Origin: a virus
Length of the DNA stretch: 64,000 nt
Virus record (IMG/VR): IMGVR_UViG_3300039074_000056
Coordinates: 1 to 64,000 of that record
Reading direction: 5' to 3' (one strand)
Within the stretch, counting starts at the first letter, position 1, and each line of letters begins with the position of its first letter. Shown here piece by piece: positions 777-63,275 of this stretch. The notes under the pieces were generated by a model. The model was not told the origin of the DNA and did not search any database. It saw nothing but the letters and a program-made list of their open reading frames with translations. The position numbers and the translations under genes are program-made.

Positions 777-1547
777 TTAGTTGTTATAACAACTAGCTAT
801 CCATTCTTTGTGTTTTTGTGATTCAACTACTTTGACATAGGGGAGTCCATCTGCATCAAGAGTTACCGGAAGACCAAGTGCAGCAGATACATCGCCAACA
901 AGCCGCGTATTAGTGTCTGACAGCCTTGTAACAGATTCTGCCCAAGATTGCTTAGCCCTGTTCATGTACTTGAAAATAGATGGTTGCAGCGGTGTCAAGC
1001 TTCTTCCCTCCTTTATCAAATCATCAAGAGTTTTGTTTGTACCATAAGAGAATGAATAATACCTATCTTCTTTCAGCTTGTGATCTACAACATAGACCAA
1101 ATCTCCTTTGTACCAGCGATAACCGAATGAAGGGTTTATACACAGCTTAAACATATCTCCTTGAATACCATCTGCCTTAGTGTAGAACCTTAGCCAACCA
1201 TTAGCCTCAAACAGTCGTAACTTTTCACGCATAGCGTGATCTGTTAGGCACTTCTTTTTGAACAGCTCTTCTTTGATGTTATCTTTTGTTACAAACATAA
1301 TGTTCTGGTAACCCTTGTGCTTTGTTAGCATGGACTGTAGTCTTTTGATAATAGTAATACGTCGCTCCGTTGCAGTAGACCTCTTAATTACCTTCTTACG
1401 CACTAAATATGCATCTTGCTCCTCAATAAATCTTATGAAGGAGCGTGTCACAATACTTCGCTTATTGAATGCCTCTTTGTTAAATAATTCTTCAAGCTGG
1501 TCTTTACTTTTTATCTCTGGAAAATCCATCGTTGGCACTCTATTCAA
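777..1547 (-). CDS. hypothetical protein, possibly a winged-helix (RepL-like) DNA-binding/replication protein
   Basis: 256-aa ORF; helix-turn-helix-like segment followed by 'INPSFGYRWYKG', resembling the NP..KG wing of RepL-type proteins; adjacent to the repeat region. Confidence 0.35.
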   Translation of the reverse strand: MNRVPTMDFPEIKSKDQLEELFNKEAFNKRSIVTRSFIRFIEEQDAYLVRKKVIKRSTATERRITIIKRLQSMLTKHKGYQNIMFVTKDNIKEELFKKKCLTDHAMREKLRLFEANGWLRFYTKADGIQGDMFKLCINPSFGYRWYKGDLVYVVDHKLKEDRYYSFSYGTNKTLDDLIKEGRSLTPLQPSIFKYMNRAKQSWAESVTRLSDTNTRLVGDVSAALGLPVTLDADGLPYVKVVESQKHKEWIASCYNN

Positions 1548-2167
1548 TCGTTTCTCCTCTTTGTATAAACTATAAATCTATCTCTCAATTTTATTGTTTT
1601 ATTGCTAATTTCAAATACATCCTCAAGCACATCCTTATACTCCATTGGTATGAAATTACTTCCACCCCTTCTTGTCAAACCTTTAGTAAAATAAAATTTA
1701 CAGATTTTCTCAGTAACATCTGTGTGAGGTACTCCAACTACAAGCGATGTAAACTTAAAGGTGGATACAAGACCTTCTATAATATCAGAAGCTTTCCTAC
1801 AAGCACCCGAAGAGTAGTTACCCCCTGATAAAAAATCACGGATACTTTTGTATGTAGATGAATAACAAATAAAGCCATCTCTACCAATAGTCATTTTATT
1901 AAATACAGGATTAAACTCTTTAATCTTTTCATACTCTACATCATTAGCTTTATTTTTACACAGACTTCTAAATACTACTTCTGTAGTAATTTTTTGACCA
2001 CTGAAGTGCATCTTGTTTAGTTCATATACATGGCTTGTCCCAGATGCACAGTGCTTCTCTCTCCCTTCTGCACCATGTCCGACATATAAAACTGTCCCGT
2101 CTATACTTCGCGCTATATATACAACAAAAGATTTTTCTTTTGGTGCTTTGTAAGAACGACTGTACAT
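1544..2167 (-). CDS. GIY-YIG-family nuclease domain protein
   Basis: N-terminal 'FVVYIARSIDGTVLYVGHG..GR..H' and later 'E...I....P.FN' pattern. Confidence 0.6.
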   Translation of the reverse strand: MYSRSYKAPKEKSFVVYIARSIDGTVLYVGHGAEGREKHCASGTSHVYELNKMHFSGQKITTEVVFRSLCKNKANDVEYEKIKEFNPVFNKMTIGRDGFICYSSTYKSIRDFLSGGNYSSGACRKASDIIEGLVSTFKFTSLVVGVPHTDVTEKICKFYFTKGLTRRGGSNFIPMEYKDVLEDVFEISNKTIKLRDRFIVYTKRRND

Positions 2168-2170
2168 TAA

Positions 2171-2386
2171 TCATCTCCCCCAGTCAACTTCCATTGCCAT
2201 GTATTTATCATACAGCCTGTCATAATGTTCTTCTATTTGCTTTGCTGTCATCGAGCCGTAGGTGAGTTTACGAATAGCCATGTAAAGTCTCTTAGTCTTT
2301 TTGTTCAAAGTCCAAGGTCTTTCTTTTCCTATGTTCTTTAGGGATAACTCTTTCAGGAGGAAGTCTACATGATTGTCTGTCATCAA
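2171..2386 (-). CDS. hypothetical protein
   Basis: ORF tightly packed in the leftward operon, upstream SD-like AAGGTG. Confidence 0.55.
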   Translation of the reverse strand: MMTDNHVDFLLKELSLKNIGKERPWTLNKKTKRLYMAIRKLTYGSMTAKQIEEHYDRLYDKYMAMEVDWGR

Positions 2387-2444
2387 AACACCTTCTTGAT
2401 TTTAGACAAATGCTTCACTGTCATAAGAAACAGAATCACCCAAA

Positions 2445-2747
2445 TCATCGCTTTTTCTCTAGTTCTTTAACTCGATACAGAGGGTACTCACCAAACATGA
2501 GTGACCAGCATTTATCTTGCCCCCACATCTCTTGGTTCTTATCAAGCCAAGCATCTAAATCACACTTATCTGTGAAAAATGTAAATACTTCATACCCATG
2601 AGCCTCTCTGTTTTCAAGAGGGTCTGTCCAAAGCTTTTCTACAATGTAGATTGTGTTGATAATTGGAGAATCATAATAACCATCACTGCCACTAAACATT
2701 CTCATACAAACGCTCCTGTCATAACTCCAATAATTACTAGATAGCAC
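2445..2747 (-). CDS. hypothetical protein (true start probably ~2700)
   Basis: ORF in the operon, overlaps the end of the upstream gene. Confidence 0.5.
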   Translation of the reverse strand: MLSSNYWSYDRSVCMRMFSGSDGYYDSPIINTIYIVEKLWTDPLENREAHGYEVFTFFTDKCDLDAWLDKNQEMWGQDKCWSLMFGEYPLYRVKELEKKR

Positions 2748-3070
2748 AGATAGTGCAACATTTGGTCAACACCAAGCATAATCCAAAACTCATTATCTTT
2801 GTCTGCTTTCCATCCGTTTGATTTTACGATATTCATCTTACCGTAGTCAATAGCGTAGTGAGCAGCAAACTCACCAAGAGCACAAAAGAAAGCAAGAAGT
2901 GGATTTAACCAACATAAAGCTCCGAAAGTAACGAGTCCGTGCAAACCAGCATGGGCGTATCCTCCAATGTGCTTGAAGTTTCCCTTATTCTGCCACATCC
3001 AAGGTGGTTGATAAAGGAAATCAACCATAAAATGCTTTACAATAAAGAAAAATAGCAGAAGTAAGTCCAT
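2702..3070 (-). CDS. DUF3307-like membrane protein
   Basis: His-rich pattern 'KHFMVDFLYQ...M..NKG...HAGLHG...HYAID..K...GVDQMLH' with hydrophobic helices. Confidence 0.7.
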   Translation of the reverse strand: MDLLLLFFFIVKHFMVDFLYQPPWMWQNKGNFKHIGGYAHAGLHGLVTFGALCWLNPLLAFFCALGEFAAHYAIDYGKMNIVKSNGWKADKDNEFWIMLGVDQMLHYLCYLVIIGVMTGAFV

Positions 3071-3363
3071 TATGCGATCTCCTCATAATCCATAAACTCA
3101 TAATCAGAACAAACAAGCCTAGATAGTTTCCAGAAAGCCTTGTTACTGTATTCTGTGACAGACTTCTTGCTAAACACATAACCATTACTTTCACCATCCA
3201 TAGCTCTGCTCCAACAAGATAAGGCATAGTTAATATCTCTGGCTTTCTCACCATTCATAGTGATGTGAAGTAGTCGCATCTCAGAGGCAATGCTCTTTAG
3301 AACATATACTTGCTCTTTTAGGGTTGGTGTTCCTTTGCCTCTTAATTTAGTCTTCTTATTCAC
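3070..3363 (-). CDS. hypothetical protein
   Basis: ORF with stop/start overlaps to neighbours. Confidence 0.6.
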   Translation of the reverse strand: MNKKTKLRGKGTPTLKEQVYVLKSIASEMRLLHITMNGEKARDINYALSCWSRAMDGESNGYVFSKKSVTEYSNKAFWKLSRLVCSDYEFMDYEEIA

Positions 3364-3664
3364 TTTGAATCCTCACATTAATTAGGTAGGCAATTTTATC
3401 TAGCCATTTTTGCCTAACTATTTCGTTATCAAACATTCCATGACCTTCGTTGCTAATATCTTCCCAAAGTAGGGTTTCACCGCCGCACTCTGGGTAATCA
3501 ACGCTGAGTGCGCCCCAGCGCAGTCGAACGTATCCTACTCGGATGTAATCAACTTCTGATGCTTTTATGTAAACGTCATATTGCTCTGGGCAAGCAAAGC
3601 AGGTTAGCTTAAAAACTAGTCCACGGATTGTGAAATCTTCTTGGCCTGTGTCCCAACTATTCAT
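3356..3664 (-). CDS. hypothetical phage protein
   Basis: 'LTCFACPEQYDVY...VGYVRLRWG' pattern I recall from small phage proteins; good SD. Confidence 0.6.
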   Translation of the reverse strand: MNSWDTGQEDFTIRGLVFKLTCFACPEQYDVYIKASEVDYIRVGYVRLRWGALSVDYPECGGETLLWEDISNEGHGMFDNEIVRQKWLDKIAYLINVRIQSE

Positions 3665-3840
3665 CTTTCTTCTCCTTTACATGCCTAGTTACAAGCCACT
3701 CCCAGCTATAACCACCCCATGTCTCATCTGCCCAATAATATTGGCTATCTTCTTTGCACCAACCATCATCGCTTACAAGATGAACGGAGTAAGTGATTTT
3801 CTTTCTGTATTTTGGTCGTCGTGCTTCGCACTTAGCGATA

Positions 3841-4146
3841 TTAGTTCTCATCTTCATTCTCCTTCTTTATCTGTAAGCAAAGCCATTTCATTGTATTAGT
3901 TAAGTCCCTCTCCTTCAACGCATACAGTGTCCCAGCTCGTAAATCTGCTTTAGTGATGTGCTTCTTTAGCTTGTGTTGTATTGTATCCCACTTGTCTAAA
4001 AGAAGCTTCATCATCTTATCATACTCTTCATCAGAAAACAAGCTGTAATCGTGATGGTAGTAAAGGTAAGACGAACAAACAATCCAAAACACCAAAGTAT
4101 TCGGGTTGCGCTTGTAGTCCTCTCTAGCCTTCTGTATTGCTTTCAT
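3841..4146 (-). CDS. stand-alone NAD-dependent DNA ligase N-terminal (subdomain Ia)-like protein
   Basis: 'YLYYHHDYSLFSDEEYDKMMKLL' matches the LigA Ia motif YY....P.ISDAEYD.L. Confidence 0.55.
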   Translation of the reverse strand: MKAIQKAREDYKRNPNTLVFWIVCSSYLYYHHDYSLFSDEEYDKMMKLLLDKWDTIQHKLKKHITKADLRAGTLYALKERDLTNTMKWLCLQIKKENEDEN

Positions 4147-4411
4147 TGAGCTTTACAAACTCTTCGTATGTTGTGTCAAGAGGGATCTCTTTCCCATTGC
4201 ATGTAAAGATAATAGTTAGTCCACCACGCATTTCTTCTTCTGGGTCATCCATAGGAATCTCTTCTGTGTAGCAAGAGATGCTCTCTACAGGGTATCCAAG
4301 AGCAAGAATCTCATCTACGTGCTTATGCACAGCAGCTCGCATATCTAATGCCTTCTGCTTCAGCTCTTCATCAGATGTTTCATCAATAATTTTTTGAAAA
4401 ATGTCTTTCAT
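4124..4411 (-). CDS. hypothetical protein
   Basis: ORF; start moved to ATG 4411 after SD AAGGAG. Confidence 0.55.
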   Translation of the reverse strand: MKDIFQKIIDETSDEELKQKALDMRAAVHKHVDEILALGYPVESISCYTEEIPMDDPEEEMRGGLTIIFTCNGKEIPLDTTYEEFVKLNESNTEG

Positions 4412-4422
4412 TCTGTATCTCC

Positions 4423-4653
4423 TTATTCTATGTAGTCGTCGTAGATTGTAATCCTGTTGAATCCGTCTCCCCCAACACTTAATACGCACTGACCATGTTC
4501 TTTAACAAACTCAATAATGTTTTCAACAACAACAAACCAATTGTCTGAGTATTCCGGCTCTATGAGGTTGTTTGTAAAGGCATCTTCACAAGGCTTAATT
4601 CCGGGAGAACTTGCCCTACTAACTATAAATAAATTATTTTCAGGTATTATCAT
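4423..4653 (-). CDS. hypothetical protein
   Basis: ORF ending 'ITIYDDYIE', overlaps the upstream gene stop. Confidence 0.55.
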   Translation of the reverse strand: MIIPENNLFIVSRASSPGIKPCEDAFTNNLIEPEYSDNWFVVVENIIEFVKEHGQCVLSVGGDGFNRITIYDDYIE

Positions 4654-5104
4654 ACTTCCTTACCTCCACTCCTGCTTGTTTAAGCAACTCTAGCCCACCA
4701 ACATCTCTAAACTCTTCTGCATAAATCACCTCCTCGATTCCGGCAGCAATAAGCATAGAGGCACACGGAACACAGCAGCTATGTGTCGTGTAAAGCGTAG
4801 CGCCCATAGCAGACACCCCCTCTTTAGCGCACTTAATAAGGCACGACAGCTCCGCATGGATGACTTCTTGCTTTGTAACCAACTTAGGGCTAGTATAGTA
4901 TCGGTCATCTTCACTCCACTCTTCAGGGATAAGCTTTTCGCACTCATTCCCAAGCTGCTTAGGCAATCCATTTACACCTGAGATTGTGACACCTGTGCTT
5001 GTCACAAGTGTAGCTCCCACCTGTAGTCGTTTTGCCTTAGACAGCTTTGCATGAGCATAGGCTGTTGTCATGTAGCATGTGTCAAGCTCTTGTCTAGTTG
5101 CCAT
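4640..5104 (-). CDS. dCMP deaminase
   Basis: Zn-deaminase motifs 'HAE' and 'CVPCA', plus 'QVGA' and 'GVNG'. Confidence 0.9.
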   Translation of the reverse strand: MATRQELDTCYMTTAYAHAKLSKAKRLQVGATLVTSTGVTISGVNGLPKQLGNECEKLIPEEWSEDDRYYTSPKLVTKQEVIHAELSCLIKCAKEGVSAMGATLYTTHSCCVPCASMLIAAGIEEVIYAEEFRDVGGLELLKQAGVEVRKYDNT

Positions 5105-5328
5105 TAGATCCATAACTCCTTCAAGAAATCGCTGTCTACAAGCTTCCGCTTTAGAAAGTAGTTAGCTCCTTCCTTCCAAACAAGCTCATCAGCTACAAGC
5201 ATAACTGGCTTATGATTGCTGCCTCGAAAGTCTGTTGTAATTAAGTAGTGGGTAGGCTTGTAGCCGTCGCCACTGCATTCAACAGGCCAATTAGTCATAA
5301 CACCTTCGATGATTTGTTGTTTATCCAT
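5104..5328 (-). CDS. hypothetical protein
   Basis: ORF; likely ATG at 5328. Confidence 0.5.
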   Translation of the reverse strand: MDKQQIIEGVMTNWPVECSGDGYKPTHYLITTDFRGSNHKPVMLVADELVWKEGANYFLKRKLVDSDFLKELWI

Positions 5329-5430
5329 TTCAGATAAACCCGTAATCCTTAGCTGCAATAGCGGCAGTTAGGCAAGCCATGCAGAAGTAGATTGTCTTGA
5401 TTTCGTAAGCTACATTCATTTTGTTTCTCC

Positions 5431-5724
5431 TTAAATAAAAGCAGCAATCGCTGCCAACAAAGCAACAATACCAAGACAGCGTTGTGTTGTCAATAACTTT
5501 TTATTCAAAGCATCTAAAGTATTTTTCTGCTGCTCCATACGAATGTTCATTGCACAAAGAGTAGCCCAATTTTCTTTCTGAGCTTTTATCTCATCTCGTA
5601 GCTGAATAATATCTGCTTTTGTTCGCACAGCATCTACGCCTATTTGTGTGATAGAGCGCGTGTAGTCGTCCTCTTTAACATATTTTGGAGCTGGTTTGCG
5701 TTTTGGTGGTGTTGTCGTAGTCAT
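5431..5724 (-). CDS. coiled-coil protein with C-terminal transmembrane anchor
   Basis: heptad-like middle, hydrophobic C-terminus 'CLGIVALLAAIAAFI'; SD AGGAG. Confidence 0.6.
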   Translation of the reverse strand: MTTTTPPKRKPAPKYVKEDDYTRSITQIGVDAVRTKADIIQLRDEIKAQKENWATLCAMNIRMEQQKNTLDALNKKLLTTQRCLGIVALLAAIAAFI

Positions 5725-5734
5725 TTTGTTTCTC

Positions 5735-6061
5735 CTATGAATTTAGTATGCGCGACTTTAAGCTTGCCTGTGCTTGACCTCGCCTCGTACCAACTGATCT
5801 ACAGGTAACATCACCTTTGGGGCTATCACCTGTCTCAGAATGCACCTTGTAGAAGTTTTTTCCGTAGTACTCATCCACTGCGAGCTGTGCAAGATCGCGA
5901 GTAGCAGCTTTTACATAAACAATTTTTCCAAAAGCGTTTTTTATAAAATATTTAGCAAGCTTTTTAATGTCTTCGTCAGCATCTGGCACTTGCTCAATCA
6001 AACTAACTTTTTTAATCTTTCCTTCCCAAACAACCTCTACTTCATTTAGCTGGATGTACAT
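5735..6061 (-). CDS. hypothetical protein
   Basis: ORF with SD AAGGAG. Confidence 0.6.
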   Translation of the reverse strand: MYIQLNEVEVVWEGKIKKVSLIEQVPDADEDIKKLAKYFIKNAFGKIVYVKAATRDLAQLAVDEYYGKNFYKVHSETGDSPKGDVTCRSVGTRRGQAQASLKSRILNS

Positions 6062-6075
6062 ACCTTCTCCTTATG

Positions 6076-6342
6076 TTAAATCCACTTGTGCAGCTTGCTC
6101 ACCAGCAAGCACTGCTCAGGTGTTGCGTAGTTTACGGGGTATCTTTTGTAAACAGTATGGAAGTTTCTTTCATTAGTTCGCTCCATAGTATACACATAGC
6201 CCTCGTATTGAAAAGCAGTGTAAGCAACAGTGGAGTCCCAAGTGGCCTCCTTAAACAAGCGAGCCAATACGGGAATAGCAGATTTTGACTGCTTCATCCG
6301 GTGGAACTTAGCTGGGGAAAGGGATTGAATTGTAGATTTCAT
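6076..6342 (-). CDS. hypothetical protein
   Basis: ORF; ATG 6342 after AAGGAG. Confidence 0.55.
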   Translation of the reverse strand: MKSTIQSLSPAKFHRMKQSKSAIPVLARLFKEATWDSTVAYTAFQYEGYVYTMERTNERNFHTVYKRYPVNYATPEQCLLVSKLHKWI

Positions 6343-6352
6343 TTGTTTCTCC

Positions 6353-7111
6353 TTAATCGTCAATGTCAATTTGCCAGTTCATTAAAGCATGAAATGTCTC
6401 TGGACGCAACACATCTTTGTACTCTTCCGCTACTCTTTTAATTTCGGCCTCTTTTGCCTCTTTGTAGACAACAAAGGCCTCTTCTGGGGTGTTGTAGTAC
6501 CCCAAAAAAATCCTTTTGTCAACAGTGCTAACTTGCGCCTTATATTTTTTACTTCGACTATAATAGCACACGCCAACTGGAAACTGTCCTCTCGTTGCCT
6601 TGCAGTTGATTAGCAAATTATTGACTTTGCTTGGAACTATATCGCAATAGTCTTGACAGTAGACTTTATTGCTGCTTTTTATAATATCTTTGTCTAAAGA
6701 AAATCCATCTTTATTAGCGTTTGGTTGTTTTTCATACCACTCTGCAAAGTTTTGAAAGTTGTGCCACTCTTCTGAAACAGAGCAACCTGCATAAGTTGGA
6801 TATTTACTCCAATAATCTTCATTATAACACCTTCTAAGCATACTACTCCATGCGCTGTAGCTTTTTGTCACAACACCGCTACTTGTTGACAAGTAAGTAC
6901 CTTGTCCAATAAAACCAACTCCGAAAATACTTGCAAAGTAAGGGTCTTTTACCCTACCAAGGACGAGGTTATTGTATCTACAAACTACTTCATGTCCGGT
7001 TTCAATAAACCTTACGGTAATTTCTCTGGAATTGCAATAATCAACTACCACACAACTACCAGATGTATTTGAGACAAATACATCACCAACTTTAACACTT
7101 GCTTTTGACAT
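6353..7111 (-). CDS. free-standing HNH-type homing endonuclease with C-terminal AP2-like domain
   Basis: 'W..MLRRCY...Y.GCSV.EEWHNFQNFAEW...LDKDI....K.Y....C..VP...N' then 'PVGV...KY.AQ....LGYY.TPEEAF..Y'. Confidence 0.8.
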   Translation of the reverse strand: MSKASVKVGDVFVSNTSGSCVVVDYCNSREITVRFIETGHEVVCRYNNLVLGRVKDPYFASIFGVGFIGQGTYLSTSSGVVTKSYSAWSSMLRRCYNEDYWSKYPTYAGCSVSEEWHNFQNFAEWYEKQPNANKDGFSLDKDIIKSSNKVYCQDYCDIVPSKVNNLLINCKATRGQFPVGVCYYSRSKKYKAQVSTVDKRIFLGYYNTPEEAFVVYKEAKEAEIKRVAEEYKDVLRPETFHALMNWQIDIDD

Positions 7112-7149
7112 AACATCCCTCCTAGTTAATAAAAGGGATGTTATCCCAT

Positions 7150-7797
7150 TTAGTCTTCGATTGCAACAGGTGTTCGTCGTTTTCGTTGAGGCTTTGGAGG
7201 CTCTTTTTCCTCAACCTCTTCAACCACAGGATTGTTCTTTTCCTCAAAGTAAAGGCCGCGTTTTTCAAGACGCTCTTCAATTTCTTCTGGAAGAAGCCAT
7301 AGTTCCTTACCATTCTTAACTTGTACAAGTTCTTCTGGTGTCAAGAACCCTTCATACACTGAATCAATCAACTTGTCTAGCTTTTTATCAGAGAATGTCA
7401 CATATCCACGAATATCGCTACCCTTCCCTCCTGTCGCAAAGCTGGCTTCGTGAATCATCATGCTTGCTGAATCTAACACAACTAAATGTGAACAAGATAG
7501 AGCAATCATACTTCCTGCGCTGTAAGCTCTGCCGTTGATAAGGCCAACCACTTGAGCATCGCTGTTCTGAATAGCAGAAACAATGGCCTCTGTTGCTGAT
7601 AAATCGCCGCCGGGTGTATTAATCCACAGCTCTACAACATCATTGTCACTTGCGCTGAGCAATACTTGCAACAGGTTACGGTAGTAAGAAGGTTCTGTGA
7701 TTTCCTCATCTAAGAAGAAGCGCGTGAGTGTAGATGTGCTAGCTTGTTGAAAGAAGCCAAGACCATTACTTGGAGTGATTTCATTTTCTTCGTTCAT
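7150..7797 (-). CDS. ClpP-family serine protease
   Basis: 'INTPGG', nucleophile 'AYSAGSMI', 'MMIH', 'ELWL.PEE'. Confidence 0.85.
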   Translation of the reverse strand: MNEENEITPSNGLGFFQQASTSTLTRFFLDEEITEPSYYRNLLQVLLSASDNDVVELWINTPGGDLSATEAIVSAIQNSDAQVVGLINGRAYSAGSMIALSCSHLVVLDSASMMIHEASFATGGKGSDIRGYVTFSDKKLDKLIDSVYEGFLTPEELVQVKNGKELWLLPEEIEERLEKRGLYFEEKNNPVVEEVEEKEPPKPQRKRRTPVAIED

Positions 7798-7925
7798 TTT
7801 AGTAGTTTTGTAATTCAATTCAGACTCCGATGTAATTGTAAAAGCGTTGCAGCAAAATAGCTGAGATAAACAAGACGACTAATAGAAGCTCGCCCATGAT
7901 TTGTATTACTAGAGAAAGATAGTAT

Positions 7926-8660
7926 TTAGCGCGGTTTAGCATCTTCAGTCATCTCCTTTTCGTAGGCAAGAACAAAGTCTTTTGTAATACCACTTCGCAC
8001 AATATCGTCGTGAGTAAAGCGGACAATTTCAACATCTGGAATCTTGTATTTTTCCACAATAGAGATCAAATACTCAAGACCATTACGACCACGCTTAACA
8101 TCCGTCTGGAAGCCACTATCGTCGCCAATACAAATCAACTGACTACCTTCTCCCATTCGTGTTGTAATTGCCTGAACTTCTGGGACAAACATGTTTTGAA
8201 ACTCTTCAGCAATAACTAAAGTGCCTTCATCCCAAGACCGACCACGAATTGATTCTAAATCACCAAGCTCAATCTCACCATTACGGATAGCCACCTCAAC
8301 AGCGCCCTTGCCCATAAAGTCTTCAAGGTACTCAATCAACTGAATGTAGAATGCGTGGAGCTTGTCCTCCAAACTGCCCGGACGGAAACCTACGGAGCGA
8401 CCAGCAAGCGGTTGATATGCCCTTAGCAATACAATTTTCTTGCAGCGATGATTTGTAAATTGGCTTGCAGCCCACCAACAAGCAAGCAATGACTTGCCTA
8501 CGCCAGCACTACCTGCCCCAATTACAACGGGAGTAGAGCGCATTGCATCCATAAAAAGCTGTTGGTTTTGTGTTTTAGGGTGTAGTTGTGGAATTTTACG
8601 CTGATGTTCAAATTTCTCACGCACAATGCGCTGTTCTGCAATCTTCTGATTACGCTTCAA
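7926..8660 (-). CDS. phoH: PhoH-family ATPase
   Basis: 'PKTQNQ', Walker A 'GSAGVGKS', 'GFRPGSLEDK', 'IRGRSW', 'EEFQN', 'TRMGEGS', 'DIVRSG'. Confidence 0.92.
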   Translation of the reverse strand: MKRNQKIAEQRIVREKFEHQRKIPQLHPKTQNQQLFMDAMRSTPVVIGAGSAGVGKSLLACWWAASQFTNHRCKKIVLLRAYQPLAGRSVGFRPGSLEDKLHAFYIQLIEYLEDFMGKGAVEVAIRNGEIELGDLESIRGRSWDEGTLVIAEEFQNMFVPEVQAITTRMGEGSQLICIGDDSGFQTDVKRGRNGLEYLISIVEKYKIPDVEIVRFTHDDIVRSGITKDFVLAYEKEMTEDAKPR

Positions 8661-8742
8661 GGTATCTCCTTAACAGCTCTTACATGATACCTTAACCCAT
8701 TTAAAGTACCTTATAAGAGCTATTTAATGTTATGAAATTAAG

Positions 8743-9246
8743 TTAATTTAAGGTCTTGTTCACCTTCTTAATAGAGACTACGTTGTCTCCGTACTCATCT
8801 AAGTCATCTTCAACAATCTCAACAATATCATCCTTCTCTTCTAGCAAGAACCTAATAGTCTCGCCTAGTTCAGAGGTTCTTTCCTCAATGGCAAGAGCTA
8901 AAGAAGCCTCATAGGTTTTGTACAAGTCAGAGTAGATAAAGCTTGCAATCGCATCTAAATGCTTTGGTTTTAAGTGCCTACATACATCGTCGTAGAATGT
9001 GTCGCTGAGTTTTCTAAAATCAAATCCACGACACATATCTACAACTTCAAGCCTGTCTTTACCACTTAGTTGAGTCATTGCTGAATAAACACTGTCTGTG
9101 ATAAAGGCTTGAAACCAGAGACGAGATAACTCCCCGTCTGCATTATCTTCTTCAGCCGTTTTGCTTTGGGCGGCCTCGGTTGACTGGCTTTGCTTGGAGC
9201 GTTCCAGCAGGGCTTTCATTTGTTTTGTCAGGCTCTTGAACAACAT
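8743..9246 (-). CDS. hypothetical protein
   Basis: 167-aa ORF. Confidence 0.55.
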   Translation of the reverse strand: MLFKSLTKQMKALLERSKQSQSTEAAQSKTAEEDNADGELSRLWFQAFITDSVYSAMTQLSGKDRLEVVDMCRGFDFRKLSDTFYDDVCRHLKPKHLDAIASFIYSDLYKTYEASLALAIEERTSELGETIRFLLEEKDDIVEIVEDDLDEYGDNVVSIKKVNKTLN

Positions 9247-9427
9247 TCACAACCTCCTTCTTCATACCGCAGCGATAGTAGCCATTAAAGCCAGTTACAA
9301 AATAATCATTGTCTGTTGTGTGCCGGTAGCCTTCTTTATGGCAGGATTCAATAGCCATGACAAACTCATACAAGCTGTATTCTTCAATAACAGCAACAGA
9401 CTTATCTTCGTTAAAAACAATACTCAT
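9152..9427 (-). CDS. hypothetical protein with C-terminal 'RGRPK' AT-hook-like tail
   Basis: ORF with SD GAGGAG. Confidence 0.55.
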   Translation of the reverse strand: MSIVFNEDKSVAVIEEYSLYEFVMAIESCHKEGYRHTTDNDYFVTGFNGYYRCGMKKEVVNVVQEPDKTNESPAGTLQAKPVNRGRPKQNG

Positions 9428-9436
9428 ACTTACTCC

Positions 9437-9607
9437 TCAATAATCGTTAATTTGGATTGAACCACAAGAAATGTCACACTCATCGTTTGACTCGTACAAG
9501 CCAAGATCATAGTGACAGTTTACATCAGACAGCTTTTCATAATCGCTTTGAACACTCCAATCTTTGTTTGGCAGGATGTTATCAAAAGCGTAGTTTGTTT
9601 CGTTCAT
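9437..9607 (-). CDS. small acidic hypothetical protein
   Basis: ATG 9607 after AAGGAG; ends 'CDISCGSIQINDY'. Confidence 0.5.
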   Translation of the reverse strand: MNETNYAFDNILPNKDWSVQSDYEKLSDVNCHYDLGLYESNDECDISCGSIQINDY

Positions 9608-9617
9608 ATTAAGCTCC

Positions 9618-9977
9618 TTAGTAGTATTTCTTCTCTTCAAACGAATCCTTGCAAAACAGGTAAAAGGCATTTCGTGTAGAAGCAATCTTATCTGAAAGCT
9701 TCTTATCTGTCAAGCTTTGATACAACTCTTTTACACCTTGTGAATTAACATTAGCAACAATACCTGTTGCAACTATAAGTTCTGCTGCGTTAAGATTTGC
9801 CTTCTCAGCAGCTTCTGGAAGCAAGCTAACCACAGTTTTCAAATCCGTGCCTTGGTAAAGCTTAAAAACGCCAGCAGCAGCCATGCTACTTGCCTTATTG
9901 CAGTCAACCAAAGGTTGCGCAAAAGCGTTTGAAGCTACAACTAACATAAAAACTAATGTTGTGATGAAACTACGCAT
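9618..9977 (-). CDS. secreted/periplasmic hypothetical protein
   Basis: signal-peptide-like 'MRSFITTLVFMLVVASNAFA'; first gene after the leftward promoter. Confidence 0.6.
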   Translation of the reverse strand: MRSFITTLVFMLVVASNAFAQPLVDCNKASSMAAAGVFKLYQGTDLKTVVSLLPEAAEKANLNAAELIVATGIVANVNSQGVKELYQSLTDKKLSDKIASTRNAFYLFCKDSFEEKKYY

Positions 9978-10007
9978 CGTTGTCTCCTTTTGTGTTGGTA
10001 TTTGAGA

Positions 10008-10042
10008 AGCATAGCTTAGTAGGCTTGTTTTTTCAAGGGACT
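10008..10042 (-). promoter_or_regulatory. leftward promoter TTGAAA-17-TATGCT carrying the AGTCCCTTGAAAAA motif
   Basis: reverse complement of AGTCCCTTGAAAAA at 10029-10042; -10 at 10013-10008. Confidence 0.65.
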
Positions 10043-10064
10043 TTTATGAAAATAAATTAAAATT

Positions 10065-10099
10065 AGTCCCTTGAAAAAGCAGAATTGTCATGTGAAACT
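10065..10099 (+). promoter_or_regulatory. rightward promoter TTGAAA-17-GAAACT (TG-extended) carrying the AGTCCCTTGAAAAA motif
   Basis: motif 10065-10078; TGTGAAACT 10091-10099. Confidence 0.5.
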
Positions 10100-10139
10100 T
10101 AATTTGTTGGTTTGTTAGTAGTTATCTCTAACTTGCCTA

Positions 10140-10168
10140 TTGACAGGCAGTAGATTTAGTAGTACAAT
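10140..10168 (+). promoter_or_regulatory. sigma70-type promoter for ncRNA element A
   Basis: TTGACA (10140-45), 17-nt spacer, TACAAT (10163-68). Confidence 0.8.
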
Positions 10169-10174
10169 CCACAA

Positions 10175-10485
10175 CATTCCTAGAGGCACAGGAATCGGCA
10201 TGAAGAGATATGTTCTTTGACACTCACCGCATCATGCTTAAAGCCCTAAGAAGAGGAACAGTATACGGGGTAAGCGACGATCTAACCACATGGTCGCGAA
10301 TACTTCCATTGTTGATGTTGACGATGGTTGCATGTGGAATACATCTGGCAGCAGCCAGCTTCGAGCCATCTCAATTTGGATGTGCAGAAAAGGGAGTATA
10401 GATGAGCTAGGGCTTGGGGAATGGGGTGGACGCAACCACTCTTAAATACCCACGGCTCTAGGATTCTTGTATCTATACTTCTTCA
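10175..10485 (+). ncRNA. structured ncRNA-like element A (unassigned family; paralog of 62822-63145)
   Basis: multiple stems; 13-bp closing helix AGGGAGTATAGAT/ATCTATACTTCTT; motifs GGTAAGCGA, ATCTGGCAGCAGCCAGC, GGGAATGGGG..CTCTTAAATACC shared with element B. Confidence 0.75.
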
Positions 10486-10536
10486 ACCAAACTCATTTGG
10501 ATATGTAATTAATATAGTTAAGATAAGGAGAACAGA

Positions 10537-10959
10537 ATGAATAAGAGTCTTAGAGAAGCTGTGTTACAGAAGCTGGTGTTTAGAGATGGAGTCGTATACA
10601 GAGCTACAGCATCTGGCTTAAAACCATTGCCTTTTGATGACACATATGTGGAGACAAAGGTAAGTGGCATGAAGTTGAAGACAACGCTCCCTCGTCTTTG
10701 CTACTTCCTACAGACAAAGGAATGGCAACCTGTTGTGGATGTTATTGACTCAAAGAAGCCGATGACATTAGACAACCTTGTTATCGGTAAGCAAAAGACA
10801 TTGATGGCTAAATACGACTATACCACCCACCTCACTTCGTTTTATTGGAAGGATGGGAGTAGGCGTAGACAGAAAACCATTGATTCCTCAAGCACAGAGG
10901 AAATTACACTTTTCATTCAGAAAATGAAAGAATATAAAATAAAATATTTAGATAAATAA
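10537..10959 (+). CDS. degenerate HNH-endonuclease-like protein
   Basis: 'PRLCYFLQTKEWQPVVDVIDSKKPMTLDNL' aligns by eye with the HRL.W....G.WP..VDHIDG...NN..ENL motif but lacks the catalytic His/Asn. Confidence 0.45.
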   Translation: MNKSLREAVLQKLVFRDGVVYRATASGLKPLPFDDTYVETKVSGMKLKTTLPRLCYFLQTKEWQPVVDVIDSKKPMTLDNLVIGKQKTLMAKYDYTTHLTSFYWKDGSRRRQKTIDSSSTEEITLFIQKMKEYKIKYLDK

Positions 10960-10965
10960 TAAATT

Positions 10966-11000
10966 AGTCCCTTGAAAAAACAGATGTTGGGTGTGATAAT
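10966..11000 (+). promoter_or_regulatory. promoter TTGAAA-17-GATAAT (TG-extended) carrying the AGTCCCTTGAAAAA motif
   Basis: motif 10966-10979; TGTGATAAT 10992-11000. Confidence 0.7.
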
Positions 11001-11007
11001 TCTTTTA

Positions 11008-11228
11008 TCAGCTAGACATTAATTATTTCCCCAGCCGATTCTAGGCAAGGCTGGGAATATCGCAGGCAATCAAACTTGGATAGAATCTAATTTGAGTTGT
11101 CGTGTATCAGCACTGCACTTCTGTATCCATTGTGTTCTCTCCTTCGCAATGTAACTTAGATACGCTGGATGATAGTAACCAGCACCTATTGTTTTTGTGT
11201 TGGCTACTCCCAGCACTTATTTTTATTC
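11008..11228 (+). ncRNA. putative small structured RNA with anti-Shine-Dalgarno-like loops
   Basis: five hairpins downstream of a promoter, ending in a stem plus U-tract; loops TTCTCTCCTT (11135-44) and CTACTC. Confidence 0.45.
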
Positions 11229-11260
11229 TAACGCACCTCTGGTGCTTGTGAGGTGTTATA

Positions 11261-11485
11261 GTGCGCTGCCGTTCGTGTGATGGTGTTATGGGTGGTCATC
11301 CCGGTTGGATTGTATTAGAAGATGGAACAAAGATTGAAGAAGATATGTGCTCAGCTTGTCGAGGTGTAGTACGCAATATTGATACTTTAGATATTAAAGA
11401 GTTTATGCTTGGAAGTCTAACAAGTGATGTAGCTAGTGTTATTTTTACACATGGCGTAACGCCTGTTCCTAAAATACCATATTAA
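11261..11485 (+). CDS. zinc-ribbon-like hypothetical protein
   Basis: CxxC...CxxC ('CRSC','CSAC'); SD GAGGTG before GTG. Confidence 0.6.
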   Translation: MRCRSCDGVMGGHPGWIVLEDGTKIEEDMCSACRGVVRNIDTLDIKEFMLGSLTSDVASVIFTHGVTPVPKIPY

Positions 11486-11746: not shown

Positions 11747-11821
11747 GTTCCGATAAGATAATGGTAGTCGGCTGGCCTCCAAAGCCATGCAGTGGTAGTT
11801 CAAATCTATCTCGGTTCGCCA
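11747..11821 (+). tRNA. trnW: tRNA-Trp (CCA), with imperfect acceptor stem
   Basis: cloverleaf; anticodon loop CTCCAAA; T-loop TTCAAAT; 3' CCA encoded; two U-U mismatches in the acceptor stem. Confidence 0.75.
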
Positions 11822-11826: not shown

Positions 11827-11902
11827 GCTGCTATAGCTCAGTTGGTAGAGCTATTCACTTGTAATGAATGGGTCGTGGGTTCGAGTCCTACTGGCAGCAC
11901 CA
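11827..11902 (+). tRNA. trnT: tRNA-Thr (TGT)
   Basis: canonical cloverleaf GCTGCTA..TGGCAGC-A-CCA; D arm AGCTCAGTTGGTAGAGC; anticodon loop CTTGTAA; GTTCGAG. Confidence 0.95.
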
Positions 11903-26270: not shown

Positions 26271-27032
26271 GTGGGTATGGTCGACATTGTAACTATTGGT
26301 TATAGGATTCAAACAGAAGGTCTCGCTCAAGCCAATAAGGAAATTGACGGTCTACTTAAAAAGAGTGATAAGTTAAATAATACTAAGGTTTCCCCAAAGA
26401 CAGATTCCAAAGGTCTTGACGATGTTGCAAGAGCTTCTGCTAAGGCCACTAAAGAATTGTCTGTCCTGCAAAAACAGAAAGAGAACTTAGAGAAAGGCTT
26501 TAACAAGTCAACTAGCCTAGCTCTTGCCCGTATGCAAGTAGCTGGTGTTCCTCCTGCCACAATAGCAAGCTATGCTAATGCAAGAAAGCAAGTGGATGAA
26601 CTTTCAAACAGCATGTCGCGACTTAGAGTATCCACTCAAGGTGGTTTAAGTTTAATCTCTGGTCTTGGTATTGGTCTTGGTACGGCGGTCTTTGGACAAC
26701 TTGCCGTTGGTGTTGGTAAGTTAGCTGACAGCATGACGCTTCTTCAAGCCCGTATTAAGCTCGTCACACCAGTTACAGAAAACCTTAACGCTGTACAGCA
26801 AAGGTTGGTTGATACAGCCATTGCAACAAGAACAGACCTCACCTCAACAATTACATTGTATAATCGACTTCAGCCAGCATTGTCTCGCTACGGTAAGACA
26901 ACCTCGGAGGTACTGGATATTACAGAAGCATTTGGTAGAACACTTCTACTATCAGGTGCGAATACGCGAGAAGCAAGTGCTGCAATCCTACAGTTCTCTC
27001 AGGCTATGGGTAGCGGTAAACTTGCAGGTGAT
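26271..27032 (+). CDS. tape measure protein, exon 1
   Basis: tape-measure domain 'ADSMT.L.ARI', 'QFSQAMGSGKLAGD' ending at the 5' splice site. Confidence 0.9.
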
Positions 27033-27285
27033 AGATAAATTTGTCACCCTACGGAGTAATTCGTAGCACAAACACTACCTAAAACGGGAAACTCCTTCAG
27101 GACAATCCGTTGCTAAATATAGAGCTAAAGCTCTATTAAATGCCCAACGACTAGCCGCAAGGCGTACACTCAAGTGAGTGGAAATGGTAGTCTCCCTTAC
27201 GGGATGAAGATATAGTCTCATCTGCATGGCAACATGCAGCAGCTTAATTGCGGCATAAGCCTAACGACCTTATGTGAAGATAAAG
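27033..27285 (+). mobile_element. group I intron (subgroup IA2-like), 253 nt, no internal ORF
   Basis: P1 GGTGAT/GTCACC with U-G at the splice site; P3 ACTACC/GGTAGT; P7 GACTA/TAGTC; CAACGACTA and GAAGATATAGTCT core; P7.1/P7.2; GNRA-capped P2 and P9; terminal G; splicing restores 'LAGD|EFRS'. Confidence 0.93.
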
Positions 27286-30200: not shown

Positions 30201-31185
30201 GTACTCTCTTCGTGACAATGTTATTGCTATTGGCAATGGTTTTGCTGATGTAACTATTAGCTTGATTAAAGGAGCTGGTGGAGTAGATAGACTGCAAGAT
30301 GGTCTTGATACTTTCTTTAACGATTTCCTTGATTCTCAAGAGCAAACAGCCGAGCTTACCCGTCGTACTACGCGAGAGTTTGCAAAACTTGGTTTGGCAC
30401 TGCCTGCAAGCAAAGAAGCTTTTAAGACTCTTGTTCAAGGTATTGACACCACAACAAGCTCTGGTCAAGAGTTACTTGGCAGCGTACTTGCGTTGTCACC
30501 AGCTTTCCTTGAAATGAGTAGCGCAGCAGAAGACGCTGGCAGTAGCTTAACTGATGCCGCCAGAAGCCTTTACGAAACTATTAGAGATGCTAGGGTTGAG
30601 TCGTTAGTACCTACACAGCAACTAGATGTATTGCTATCTGAGTACCAGAGCGCAGTGAATCTAGCAACACAATCAACAGGACAAAATCTTGCTGATAATG
30701 CTGGCGTGGTGAATAACTTAATCAAACCGCTCCTTGATTCTATCAAGAGTGTGTTTGCTAGTGGCCCTGAAGCACAGCGTTTGATTGATAGCGTCCTTGG
30801 GCAAGCTAAGAATGTAGCTGATAAAGCTGCTAACGAAGCTTTCACTTATCAGGATGAGTCTCTGCGTCTGCTACAAGCTCAAGTCAACGAGCTAGAGGCT
30901 ATTCGTTCGGCACTGAGCATTGGTGTGTTTACTCCTGTAAATCTTGGTACGGCAAGTAATGTTGTTCCTATTACAACAGGAAATACAGGTAGCTTAAATG
31001 TTAGTGTTCAGAGCACGACAGACAATACAGCTATCATCACTGCTCTAACAGAAAGCAATGCTCACGCAGCAGCTCTTGTTAGATTGCAACAAGCAGCTAA
31101 CCAACAAATCATTGCCAAACTTACAGAAATGGAAGAAAGGCTTGATGGTTTGGAGTCATCTGCAAGCTTGGCAGCATCTGCCTAA
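27286..31185 (+). CDS. tape measure protein, exon 2 (spliced product ~1553 aa)
   Basis: long Ala/Gly/Leu-rich helical ORF continuing the tape-measure motif 'EFRSVAEAAP'. Confidence 0.9.
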   Translation, partial: EFRSVAEAAPALLDALAKGGNVARDSLKKMSQDGLLTTKFVADALQKSMLDLIVATEGIPKTVGQAFQNLSTGFQFFIGELNKTYGITEGLSGIISELASGMVGLGKSLQDGKFQEVTNNLLIMTGVIGGAATAFYIMDAANKSANVSLLEYVKNLRIATGAQALFNIVAAANPYVILAATIIGVATALYSMRNATVEVGGTTVSIGSLIVSTFESLKERVGSAFIFITESYKKITKGLQDAFVGIFNFLKDTIAGKILGALVDAFTNTLKALGQIGIRFAKALGLDKLTEQFNAFVSDLGQDIVIGAVVRDSKGAKPEAVNPFLGGGGTATVVETEATKKLREERERLAEQNAEFRKNYLAETALLQSVNDLIAQGLPLKEAELEAQKLVDTQKAISAGLTQLQIDKQYALRDAIKATADAEKAREDQKKYQDSVDKDFAKNQEAFLKPEELKIGDLFGDASKGAGALINAFQDINKQQEAYNELLADAVVNNRDVTDIEKQRAKNELRNIGNILGATKGFFKEKSAGYKVLSAAEKAYKAFELASTIKNFAIEKGLTLETIGIKLSGYAQTAIAAVSSAGTSIAALLGIGATAGAVAPVTAAAGTPGPAAFVAFAAMAALVAAAGFGGSKTKGSFAPTNEGTGTVFGDKSAKSESIKRSIDLLAENSKIELPITSAMLRSLQNIESNIGGLTNLVIRKGAGEDLAKTVSTGFKESGLGKGLRTAVGIVTLGASELLGIGKLIGGLFGTKISIKGQGLLGEAQNLSSITSEGFNLREYVDINKKKKSFGFTTSNKNSTRTSAASDELERQFTLIFTGFYDAIKLAAVPLGQNLNDVTSRLDNFVVKIGKINLKGLKGEEIQEKLEAVFGAAADSIAQAAIPGLEDFQKVGEGYFETVVRVSSGIEQAAQALDLFGVTAVNFKDIILKQGDVGAEIVRQSLVLANGVSGVSEILSIASVDSVDAIVELATQLYSLRDNVIAIGNGFADVTISLIKGAGGVDRLQDGLDTFFNDFLDSQEQTAELTRRTTREFAKLGLALPASKEAFKTLVQGIDTTTSSGQELLGSVLALSPAFLEMSSAAEDAGSSLTDAARSLYETIRDARVESLVPTQQLDVLLSEYQSAVNLATQSTGQNLADNAGVVNNLIKPLLDSIKSVFASGPEAQRLIDSVLGQAKNVADKAANEAFTYQDESLRLLQAQVNELEAIRSALSIGVFTPVNLGTASNVVPITTGNTGSLNVSVQSTTDNTAIITALTESNAHAAALVRLQQAANQQIIAKLTEMEERLDGLESSASLAASA

Positions 31186-31187
31186 TT

Positions 31188-31221
31188 AATAGGGAATCTC
31201 CGGATTCCCTGTTATTCTTTT
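31188..31221 (+). terminator. intrinsic terminator after the TMP
   Basis: AATAGGGAATC-TCCG-GATTCCCTGTT then T-rich. Confidence 0.7.
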
Positions 31222-31272
31222 AACAAATAGGTATTTAATAAATTAAAAGTACCTCTCTCTTAGGAGAATAAT

Positions 31273-43669: not shown

Positions 43670-43697
43670 GGGGCGTTAGCCGCCCCTATTTTATTTT
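43670..43697 (+). terminator. intrinsic terminator at the convergence of the late and replication blocks
   Basis: GGGGCG/CGCCCC + TATTTTATTTT. Confidence 0.75.
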
Positions 43698-46434: not shown

Positions 46435-46790
46435 TCATTTTCCTTCTTTTCAGTGTTAACTTCCTTACTACCCTTTGTCATATTCCGAATCTCTTTCACA
46501 AGAGACTTGTCTTCGGAGTAAATACGACATTCGTGCGAGGAATTGCCTGACTCTCTCCAAAATTTGTCAATTCTCTCTAATCCTACAATACGATCAGTAA
46601 CGCAAACCCCACAAAGTTTGGTGCGAGTTTCTAATCCAGTTTGCAGTTCAATTCCATAATCAGTATCAAGTCCCAAATTATGCAACAAAGCACGAACATC
46701 ACCCTTATGGGTTTCCAACATACTTACCTCAAAATGAGGGACAATCTTCTTAATATCAGCTACGCAAATTACAATAATTGGACGGCTCAT
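46431..46790 (-). CDS. hypothetical protein
   Basis: ORF overlapping both neighbours. Confidence 0.6.
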   Translation of the reverse strand: MSRPIIVICVADIKKIVPHFEVSMLETHKGDVRALLHNLGLDTDYGIELQTGLETRTKLCGVCVTDRIVGLERIDKFWRESGNSSHECRIYSEDKSLVKEIRNMTKGSKEVNTEKKEND

Positions 46791-47491: not shown

Positions 47492-47689
47492 TTATCCTCC
47501 TTCTACTGTATAATCTTGTTGTTCCATTTTCTCATTGCTAATCTCATACTGACTAACAAAGCAACCAGCATCTTTCAGAAGATCTAACCATGTGTTAGTG
47601 GGAATACTATGACCATCTTCGTACAGCTTGCCATTAACAATCAAAGCTTCCCAATCACCATCAGGACATGTGAAATGTTCTACTTTCAT
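47492..47689 (-). CDS. hypothetical protein
   Basis: ORF; 'DWE.L..NG.L..DGHSI'. Confidence 0.55.
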   Translation of the reverse strand: MKVEHFTCPDGDWEALIVNGKLYEDGHSIPTNTWLDLLKDAGCFVSQYEISNEKMEQQDYTVEGG

Positions 47690-48422: not shown

Positions 48423-48453
48423 ATTAATTCTCCTTACGTTTCTTTAGCTTGGG

Positions 48454-62788: not shown

Positions 62789-62818
62789 TTGACACGGGGA
62801 AGGTAGGTGTAGTACAAT
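62789..62818 (+). promoter_or_regulatory. sigma70-type promoter for ncRNA element B
   Basis: TTGACA-18-TACAAT; shares 'TAGTACAATC' with the promoter of element A. Confidence 0.8.
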
Positions 62819-62821: not shown

Positions 62822-63145
62822 CCTGTTTTCTGACTAGAAGGAAAACATGTAACCAAGGTTTTCTGCGTTGACGACTGTCGGCCTTGGTGATTGTGCCCGT
62901 AGGCAAGGGGAAGAAGATCACGGTACGCCCCAAAGTGGTAAGCGAATTTATCAGCCACGAACCGTTAGTGACTCTTAAGTGAGGTAAATGATAAACTGTA
63001 TCTGGCAACAGCCAGCCTAAGCCTCGTCTGAATTTACAGAGAGATTTATGGGGGACAGAGCTAGCCTGTGTTGAAGGGAATGGGGCAGTGTAGGAACTGC
63101 TCTTAAATACCTTCTCTATAGGGTTAGTATAAGCTCTGTTTCCTA
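62822..63145 (+). ncRNA. structured ncRNA-like element B (paralog of 10175-10485)
   Basis: same motifs in the same order; closing helix GGGGACAGAGCT/AGCTCTGTTTCC; compensatory changes relative to element A. Confidence 0.75.
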
Positions 63146-63275
63146 GCCTGAACTGATTTACAGTAGTATATAGATAAATATTAATATAAGATATAATTTA
63201 GATAAGATCAACAAACATGCAGTAAAAGAGCTAAACGAAAGAATAGCTTTGCTTAGGATTAGATGAAGAAGGGTG

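Follow-up and report, generated by a model that had tools for sequence, protein, structure and literature searches.

The genome of an uncultured freshwater virus (IMG/VR record IMGVR_UViG_3300039074_000056) holds two stretches of related sequence, each directly behind a strong promoter, and the question raised by the locus is what these stretches are and what they do for the phage. The window analysed covers the opening 64,000 nucleotides (nt) of a virus record that is 80,925 bp long and has direct terminal repeats, and the two elements in it, each taken with its promoter, are copy A at 10140-10506 and copy B at 62789-63163. We are confident that both are structured RNAs made from the + strand by the sigma-70 RNA polymerase of the host, starting at strong promoters at the heads of two rightward gene blocks, and that an undescribed RNA family of PAK_P1-type phages (Pakpunavirus, Otagovirus, Flaumdravirus and kin) includes copy A as a member and copy B as a diverged paralog. 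Transcription itself, which we infer for both copies, would start near 10175 in copy A.

The original prediction, made from the letters of the sequence, had placed the same blocks in the same order in both copies, and most of them were recovered as described. The block GGTAAGCGA lies at 10269 (A) and 62937 (B), ATCTGGCA at 10343 and 63000, GGGAATGGGG at 10417 and 63076, and CTCTTAAATACC at 10439 and 63100, the last two having no other site on the same strand of the 80,925-bp genome at up to one mismatch. A further block, GAGCTAG, is correctly located at 10404 and 63058 but belongs to the second helix in A and to the outer helix in B; as these helices are not equivalent, we regard it as a coincidence and not as a homologous block. 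A TTGACA promoter does stand directly upstream of each copy, with the form TTGACA-17-TACAAT at 10140..10168 in A and TTGACA-18-TACAAT at 62789..62818 in B, both on the + strand and both near-consensus for sigma-70 with 11 of 12 consensus matches. The extent first given for the elements was right as far as it went, and the conserved tail goes further 3′, to about 10506 in A and about 63163 in B. The homologous unit shared by the two copies begins some 60 nt before the -35 element and extends into the region of the start codon, and no open reading frame (ORF) is common to them. A 63-amino acid ORF inside copy A, the only one of some size there, is without relatives in a set of 5.8 billion proteins. 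The AT-rich tract said to lie downstream of both copies is also present in this phage.

Invariant loops with compensatory stems had been taken as the mark of a conserved RNA fold, and all the stems named at that time pair in both copies. In an alignment of the 3′ halves (162 columns) RNAalifold gives 40 pairs, for which 80 of 80 cells are paired and 11 of the 40 pairs are changed on both sides. Controls in which the partner was slid by 1-3 columns give 0-3 both-side changes and none of 500 shuffles reaches the observed 11, though it may be noted that the structure so counted was derived from the same two sequences. Four stacked helices make up the 3′ domain, which is 95 nt long and folds on the + strand with -42.2 kcal/mol in A (z -6.7) and -47.0 kcal/mol in B (z -5.2), as against -24.4 and -25.1 kcal/mol on the - strand, where folding is poor because many of the pairs are G-U. 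As the + strand alone folds well, it is the folded strand and lies downstream of the promoters. The loops and stems thus represent a conserved + strand RNA fold, of about 320-340 nt and at least nine helices for the RNA as a whole.

The element was at first held to match no known family; copy A does belong to one, present in 179 phage records and undescribed in Rfam. A blastn search with the PAK_P1 copy matched 179 phage records (178 of Pseudomonas and 1 of Pectobacterium), and in PAK_P1 itself two stretches, at 89.5 kb and at 28.2 kb, look by eye like copy A over their first 130 nt. Nine copies, taken from seven phages of Pseudomonas (PAK_P1, Otagovirus, Flaumdravirus and others), were aligned and give a consensus fold of 46 pairs, 26 of them with compensatory changes. 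Covariance models were built for the 5′ half (R2, from 9 sequences) and for the 3′ part (R3) using Pseudomonas-phage sequences only, with the present phage left out. R2 matches copy A at full length at 10192-10342 (38 bits, E-value 1e-7 for a search of 0.5 Mb on both strands), and its alignment of helices H2, H2b and H3 agrees with the pairing made by hand; R3 matches the adjoining 10360-10502 (21.6 bits, E-value 0.009), where just the outer helix and the repeats align. The 5′ half of copy B is not found by R2 (best score 1.0 bit) and R3 gives a weak match at 63018-63163 (10.3 bits, E-value 0.04 in a 701-nt search with filters off). Copy B is tied to the family through copy A. In the family, changes on both sides were counted in 19 of the 27 pairs of the 5′ half (5-9 in slid controls) and in 14 of the 22 pairs of the 3′ part (1-6 in slid controls), from alignments fitted to R2 and R3, which favours the structure.

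Reading copy A from its 5′ end, all on the + strand, the first helix is the terminal hairpin H1 (AUUCCU/AGGAAU, 10176..10195, pair probability 0.72), which has an equivalent at the same place in copy B (GUUUUCU/GGAAAAC) and is lineage-specific, the PAK_P1 copies being without it. H2 (GCAUGA/UCAUGC, 10198..10237, from the R2 alignment) closes the most conserved loop of the family, AGAGAUAUGU...CACUCACCG, and shows both-side changes in 6 of 7 pairs across the family. The H2b hairpin (10243..10277, from the R2 alignment and the family counts) carries the conserved loop AAGAAGAGGAA and is followed by the block GGUAAGCGA, whose family equivalent is GGCAACUGA. Around a variable inner hairpin stands H3 (CCACAUG/CAUGUGG, 10288..10338, again from the R2 alignment), with both-side changes in all 6 of its 6 family pairs and the version UUUAUCA/UGAUAAA in copy B. 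Next come H4 (CUGGC-AGCA-GCCAG, 10345..10358), for which GCAGC/GCUGC and GGAGC/GCUCC are by eye the PAK_P1 equivalents, and H5 (10367..10382, pair probability 0.83), which holds the first of two direct repeats, with the word ATTTGGAT at 10374-10381. The 3′ domain (10391..10483, z as above, its outer helix aligned to the family by R3) has a conserved internal loop, GAAU / UAAAUA, which we take to be like the UAA/GAN motif or a relative of the 11-nt tetraloop receptor; the conserved internal loops in general presumably resemble tertiary-contact motifs. The conserved tail (10488..10506) holds the second repeat, with ATTTGGAT at 10495-10502, and stops 20 nt short of the Shine-Dalgarno sequence that belongs to ORF 10537. 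From its fold and its alignment to copy A, the copy B RNA occupies 62825..63163 (+), with H1 at 62825-62846, H2 at 62853-62887, the block at 62937-62945, H3 at 62947-62995, H4 at 63002-63015, H5 with the first repeat at 63027-63040 (word ATTTACAG at 63032-63039), the 3′ domain at 63049-63145 and the second repeat at 63156-63163. In the PAK_P1 copies and in Bitten, CTCACCG occurs in the H2 loop and again after H4, and AAGAGGAAT is likewise found twice, in the H2b loop and ahead of the 3′ domain; such internal same-sense repeats hint that the RNA arose by internal duplication of a module.

The RNA was not found in the catalogues. It was correctly said to be neither a tRNA nor a group I intron, and to lack an Rfam match: an Rfam 15 scan of the window at the gathering threshold gave two tRNAs and one group I intron elsewhere, with nothing at the elements, the intron model matching only 27023-27239 (76 bits). 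Permissive Rfam scans of both regions gave chance-level matches far below threshold, and at eight family loci Rfam found 13 tRNAs only. The Rfam 15 families so covered include the group I intron, GIR1, HEARO, 6S, GOLLD, ROOL and self-cleaving ribozymes. GOLLD and ROOL are large ornate phage-associated RNAs, often near tRNA genes, and both are in Rfam. They share with the present RNA a large intricate fold in a phage genome, and copy A also lies near tRNAs (genes at 11747-11818 and 11827-11899, 1.2 kb downstream), but the present RNA has no Rfam match, is half their size or less, is always promoter-proximal and occurs in two copies. Searches starting from the two copies themselves had little reach: blastn of A and B against 50,697 phage records gave no match, and a model made of copies A and B only (R1) found nothing credible in 37 loci, or in 7 loci with filters off, in 91 pattern-seeded IMG/VR loci or in 21 metagenome loci, and nothing in 5 whole relatives, PAK_P1 and Curvibacter phage P26059A. 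Exact-pattern scans returned 0, 17, 13 and 78 IMG/VR stretches and 21 stretches of JGI metagenomes, all of them chance matches; 7 of these 21 apparently represent one conserved, probably protein-coding, bacterial stretch.

A description of the RNA was not found in the article texts searched; the supplementary tables of the PAK_P4 paper may list a transcript at these loci. In the accessible text of the PAK_P4 paper, annotations of non-coding RNA (ncRNA) appear in figure legends only (PMC5563952). The PAK_P3 RNAs sRNA1 and sRNA2 are, from the accessible parts of the two reports, different RNAs that are tRNA-adjacent and about 100-200 nt long (PMC4933390, PMC10914365), and the subject of PMC5945682, likewise as far as its accessible text goes, is SrpA sites and not this RNA. 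The short PAK_P3 RNA at 31147-31308 was considered as a family member and rejected, as R2 finds nothing in the whole PAK_P3 record.

The arrangement in the genome is shared as well. PAK_P1, PHB09, UAVern and KIL4 have two copies each and Kremar has two plus a weak third, so that none of the 5 Pseudomonas-phage genomes in which a match occurs has fewer than two copies; the present genome, searched as a whole with R1, holds two. The weak third R2 match in Kremar lies at 44980-45106 of the record, on the - strand (19.4 bits, E-value 0.001-0.002). In 7 of 7 Pseudomonas-phage loci, and at both PAK_P1 copies, the gene upstream is on the - strand and the gene downstream on the + strand, that is, both PAK_P1 copies stand at strand-divergence points. 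The same had been stated for copies A and B, and it holds in the strict sense that they occupy the only two -/+ switches of the genome, 9978-10536 for A and 62723-63335 for B. On a crude ORF map the strand blocks are 777-9977 (-), 10537-43434 (+, with the terminase at 12250 and the portal at 13686), 43697-62722 (-, with the primase-helicase at 57582-59315) and 63336-80515 (+). On one side of copy A stand leftward genes for Clp protease and PhoH, and on the other, all of them rightward, ORF 10537, two tRNAs and the terminase; the 89k copy of PAK_P1 sits between a leftward block including an ATP-dependent protease and rightward small ORFs, tRNAs and the terminase. From this synteny and the shared two-copy layout it follows that the duplication predates the split of these phage lineages.

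The large terminase of the present phage is 60.5% identical to that of Limnohabitans phage DC31 (filed under Pakpunavirus); the identity is 48% for Curvibacter phage P26059A and 42% for the Pseudomonas phages of the PAK_P1 group, and terminase relatives at 95% and 82% identity occur in Logan assemblies only. The element in it is the most divergent member of the family so far. It shares with the PAK_P1-type members the order of helices, the conserved loops, the presence of at least two copies, the sigma-70 promoter, the divergence point and the repeat pair. It differs in coming from an uncultured freshwater virus with a terminase 42% identical to that of PAK_P1, in its extra 5′ hairpin, in the lack of a GNRA hairpin inside H3, in a different internal loop of the 3′ domain, in having no DUF4326 gene behind either copy, and in the 5′ half of copy B, which has drifted past R2.

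One feature of the RNA is not a matter of base pairing. The longest direct repeat with a spacing of 80-150 nt falls in the same two places, flanking the 3′ hairpin domain, in 15 of 15 molecules (both own copies and 13 Pseudomonas-phage copies). Each repeat is made of a constant part, (G)AACUCA or AUCUCA, and a word of 7-12 nt which the two repeats of a molecule share letter for letter but which changes from molecule to molecule, even between paralogs of one phage; it is ATTTGGAT in copy A, ATTTACAG in copy B and ATCTGCAT in PAK_P1. In a 14-nt window the identity is 0.73 within molecules as compared to 0.26 between them, and such a same-sense co-varying repeat is invisible to ordinary base-pair covariation tests. 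Additional copies of the words in the genomes are near chance. Pairing of the constant part with a CUGAGU block is possible in 5 Pseudomonas members, though copy A does not allow it. The second repeat lies roughly 10-15 nt before the next Shine-Dalgarno sequence in UAVern and Bitten, the 20 nt of copy A being given above. Two same-sense segments that change in step fit a competition for a third segment, as in attenuators, or a single reader of both.

What the RNA does is less certain than what it is. The reading we favour, at a probability of roughly 40% when its two versions are taken together, is that of an early leader acting in cis, either by modifying RNA polymerase in the manner of put or as a conformational gate; the comparison is by analogy. 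The RNA would fold into its multi-domain structure while emerging and would alter the fate of its own transcription unit. The likeliest effect would be that RNA polymerase is made resistant to pausing and termination, following the logic of putL and putR of phage HK022. Alternatively, the leader may be a switch of two conformations in which the twin words are rivals for a single partner and thereby control read-through or access to the ribosome-binding site close by. Action in cis, as well as any effect on polymerase or translation, is what we infer from the layout: no intrinsic terminator follows the fold in either copy, the RNA is directly continuous with the next gene in most members, and in the present phage two paralogous promoter-proximal RNAs head long gene blocks, as with put. 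In HK022, according to the accessible text of the source, putL and putR are two paralogous cis-encoded RNAs just downstream of the early promoters of two operons; put RNA is about 70 nt with two stem-loops, is made by host RNA polymerase and works without a dedicated protein, binding the elongation complex (at the beta′ zinc-binding domain) and suppressing pausing and termination (PMC9378689). Common to put and the present RNA are the host RNA polymerase, two copies that share sequence and stem-loops, and the proximity to early promoters. The present RNA differs in its length of about 320 nt, its nine or more helices, the conserved blocks that are single-stranded and the twin repeats that co-vary, and it has no sequence or model similarity to put; antitermination is proposed by analogy. 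The lambda nut and the rrn boxA-boxB-boxC antitermination leaders are likewise promoter-proximal RNA signals in two copies, though nut sites are short. The constant part of the repeat, GAUCUCAAU, has by eye what we take to be a faint resemblance to boxA, and we know of no N-like protein in this phage.

Several observations weigh against this early-leader reading. The RNA is 4-5 times the size of put and has many conserved single-stranded blocks, which is more than a polymerase clamp seems to need, and no mapped terminators require suppression. A good promoter at 63276-63304, within 130 nt after copy B, makes read-through less necessary there, and an early-type promoter at the head of a structural-gene block, as at copy A, is odd. 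A search for sequence complementary to the twin words gave none at a conserved position, which leaves the switch version without its third strand. Also, models R1 and R2 find nothing in DC31, in Curvibacter phage P26059A or in 20 IMG/VR loci chosen as nearest by terminase. The RNA is therefore either dispensable or fast-evolving, having been lost in these relatives or having diverged beyond the reach of the models. Finally, among the 12 listed sequencing runs that hold this DNA, no run is recorded as RNA.

The account that survives next best, one to be kept in mind but less probable, is a stand-alone early ncRNA working in trans, for which the leader would be cut in the A/U-rich tail or at the twin words and the folded RNA, or its 3′ hairpin domain, would bind a factor of the host or of the phage and serve as decoy, sponge or scaffold. 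A large multi-domain RNA with invariant single-stranded blocks is what such a role would lead one to expect, its ends would be protected by the 5′ hairpin and the long 3′ helix, and in all of the 15 molecules the twin words stand on both sides of the 3′ domain in the manner of processing sites. The case of copy B speaks for it too: at the site aligned with the start of ORF 10537 there is only a vestigial start, the frame ATG CAG TAA at 63217-63225, and yet the fold before it is kept. Processed ncRNAs derived from 5′ untranslated regions (5′UTRs) are documented in Pseudomonas phages by ONT-cappable-seq, where the candidates, in the accessible text of that report, are below 250 nt and end at premature terminators (PMC10914365). 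These candidates share with the present RNA the start at a phage promoter, the 5′UTR position, the structure and the conservation within a genus, but they are shorter and have the premature terminators, and no Pakpunavirus is profiled in that accessible text. Against action in trans, a 3′ terminator is absent and the tail abuts the ribosome-binding site of the next gene in several members. A sponge of the Csr/Rsm type in particular was rejected, as GGA motifs are not enriched (counts within about 1.5 standard deviations of shuffles in 11 of 11 molecules).

It may also be asked whether the twin words are the point of the RNA. They would then be an address of 7-12 nt, particular to each molecule and written twice around the conserved 95-nt hairpin domain, to be read by one mechanism that needs their identity, such as excision or circularisation of the 3′ domain, strand exchange, or toggling against a partner. 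We think this unlikely; if true, it would make this a phage RNA of a new kind, self-addressed and processed, with a logic that is the inverse of a CRISPR (clustered regularly interspaced short palindromic repeats) array, the payload being conserved and the repeats variable. A self-processing version, in which the identical words are two substrates of one cleavage, ligation or strand-exchange reaction and the 3′ domain is excised or circularised, we hold to be rather improbable. Such a reaction could be carried out by a ribozyme within the RNA itself, by a phage enzyme, RNA ligase for instance, or through a crossover at the DNA level. The agreement of the words within molecules and their difference between them (15 of 15; 0.73 against 0.26) favours this version, as does an RNA ligase gene directly leftward of one copy in PAK_P1 and Kremar, on the side opposite to the DUF4326 gene; the presumed likeness of the internal loops to tertiary-contact motifs would also suit it. 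But there is no Rfam ribozyme match, a guide complementary to the word was not found, the repeat is just 7-12 nt, DNA circles of about 120 bp are implausible, and among the scanned neighbours of copy B no RNA ligase was named by Pfam, in a scan that included no search aimed at ligases. A ribozyme or a decoy against host defence, the more general proposal of the original prediction, may also be considered.

The original prediction had put first the primer RNA of a replication origin, for which T4 oriF and ColE1 are precedents. By analogy with these, a promoter-driven RNA would form a persistent R-loop in the downstream AT-rich tract and prime leading-strand synthesis. The strong promoter, the G-rich segment of the RNA and the AT-rich tract of this phage would suit such a role, and so would the position of both copies at strand-divergence points. 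However, divergent promoters explain these points, the sequence downstream of the PAK_P1 89k copy is by eye not AT-rich, and the conserved part is the RNA fold with a tail at the next ribosome-binding site (in some members) and not a DNA unwinding element, so we judge an origin role to be very unlikely.

The weakest of the proposals, a guide or scaffold RNA for adjacent nuclease-like proteins, can be dismissed as highly improbable, since none of the 9 Pseudomonas-phage copies precedes a nuclease-family gene, the supposed HNH protein behind copy A has no detectable HNH similarity, and the nuclease-like gene behind copy B has a promoter of its own. For a nuclease guide of the omega RNA or HEARO type one would expect a constant association with the gene of the guided nuclease. 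The genes concerned are as follows. Downstream of the 9 Pseudomonas-phage copies stand 6 DUF4326 genes and 3 genes without a Pfam family (the copies followed by DUF4326 are L195:3050-3367, L179:785-1126, L180:743-1069, L181:905-1216, L183:914-1222 and L184:911-1219), and the present phage has no DUF4326 gene. ORF 10537 (10537..10959, +), the first gene of its unit, is a 140-amino acid orphan outside the RNA and is not a conserved partner of it. It has no Pfam family up to an E-value of 10, no PHROG family and no IMG/VR relative, and its earlier label as a degenerate HNH gene has no support in the sequence, BLASTP against the HNH_3 protein of the same genome giving an E-value of 17. Its AlphaFold model, with a pLDDT (predicted local distance difference test) of 49, is too poor for a structure search, and a terminator-like site lies downstream of it at 11197-11216. 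ORF 63336 behind copy B is MUG113/T5orf172 by Pfam, with endonuclease matches in PHROG, and its promoter is TTGACA-17-TAGTAT at 63276-63304, the one already mentioned less than 130 nt after copy B.

Some further features of the two regions and of the genome may be recorded. Between the divergent promoters of locus A, at 10028-10080, lies an inverted repeat whose arms of 9 bp match perfectly, CAAGGGACT ... AGTCCCTTG. It is preceded by a T-run and followed by an A-run and could be a bidirectional terminator-like hairpin or an operator; a permissive Rfam scan gave only chance microRNA matches there. An intact homing-endonuclease-type gene with HNH_3 and AP2 lies at 54152-54757 (-) and a second gene, with AP2 only, at 6353-7111 (-). 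Beyond the window, the early block has an ORF-free gap of 427 nt at 70641-71067, with no third copy of the element in it. The syntenic divergent gap of DC31 has a very AT-rich tract of 400 nt followed by a GC-rich island of 190 nt (L041:5476-5665), which was rejected as a relative, being single-copy and unrelated with a modest fold (z -2.15). Of the 12 sequencing runs that hold this DNA four were compared. A contig of run X3 that spans 9430-11382 shows 153 differences and 31 gaps, so that this variant, about 92% identical, has the whole copy A region. In run X10 a contig has the copy A body preceded by a 5′ hairpin of the copy B kind (with the switch at position 10195), in which one U-A pair is changed to C-G, and a variant in run X8 keeps the promoter and the copy A hairpin and is unrelated in sequence from 10198 on. 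The variants in X8 and X10 suggest modular exchange among relatives.

The PAK_P1-type phages are among the P. aeruginosa phages most used in therapy studies, and on the present results their two strongest host-type promoters are predicted to make, before anything else, an intricately folded RNA of about 300 nt belonging to a family which is undescribed, in that it is in no catalogue or paper found in the literature and Rfam searched. Two copies in a freshwater phage whose terminase is 42% identical indicate that the twin arrangement is old and maintained, and the divergence added by this phage tells apart a core that does not vary, formed by the loops of H2 and H2b, and the parts that can be replaced. 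As the family has cultured, genetically tractable members, its function is directly testable. If the RNA does modify host RNA polymerase, it would be a second type of protein-independent antiterminator after put, and if it is instead processed at the twin words, it would represent a new RNA-processing logic.

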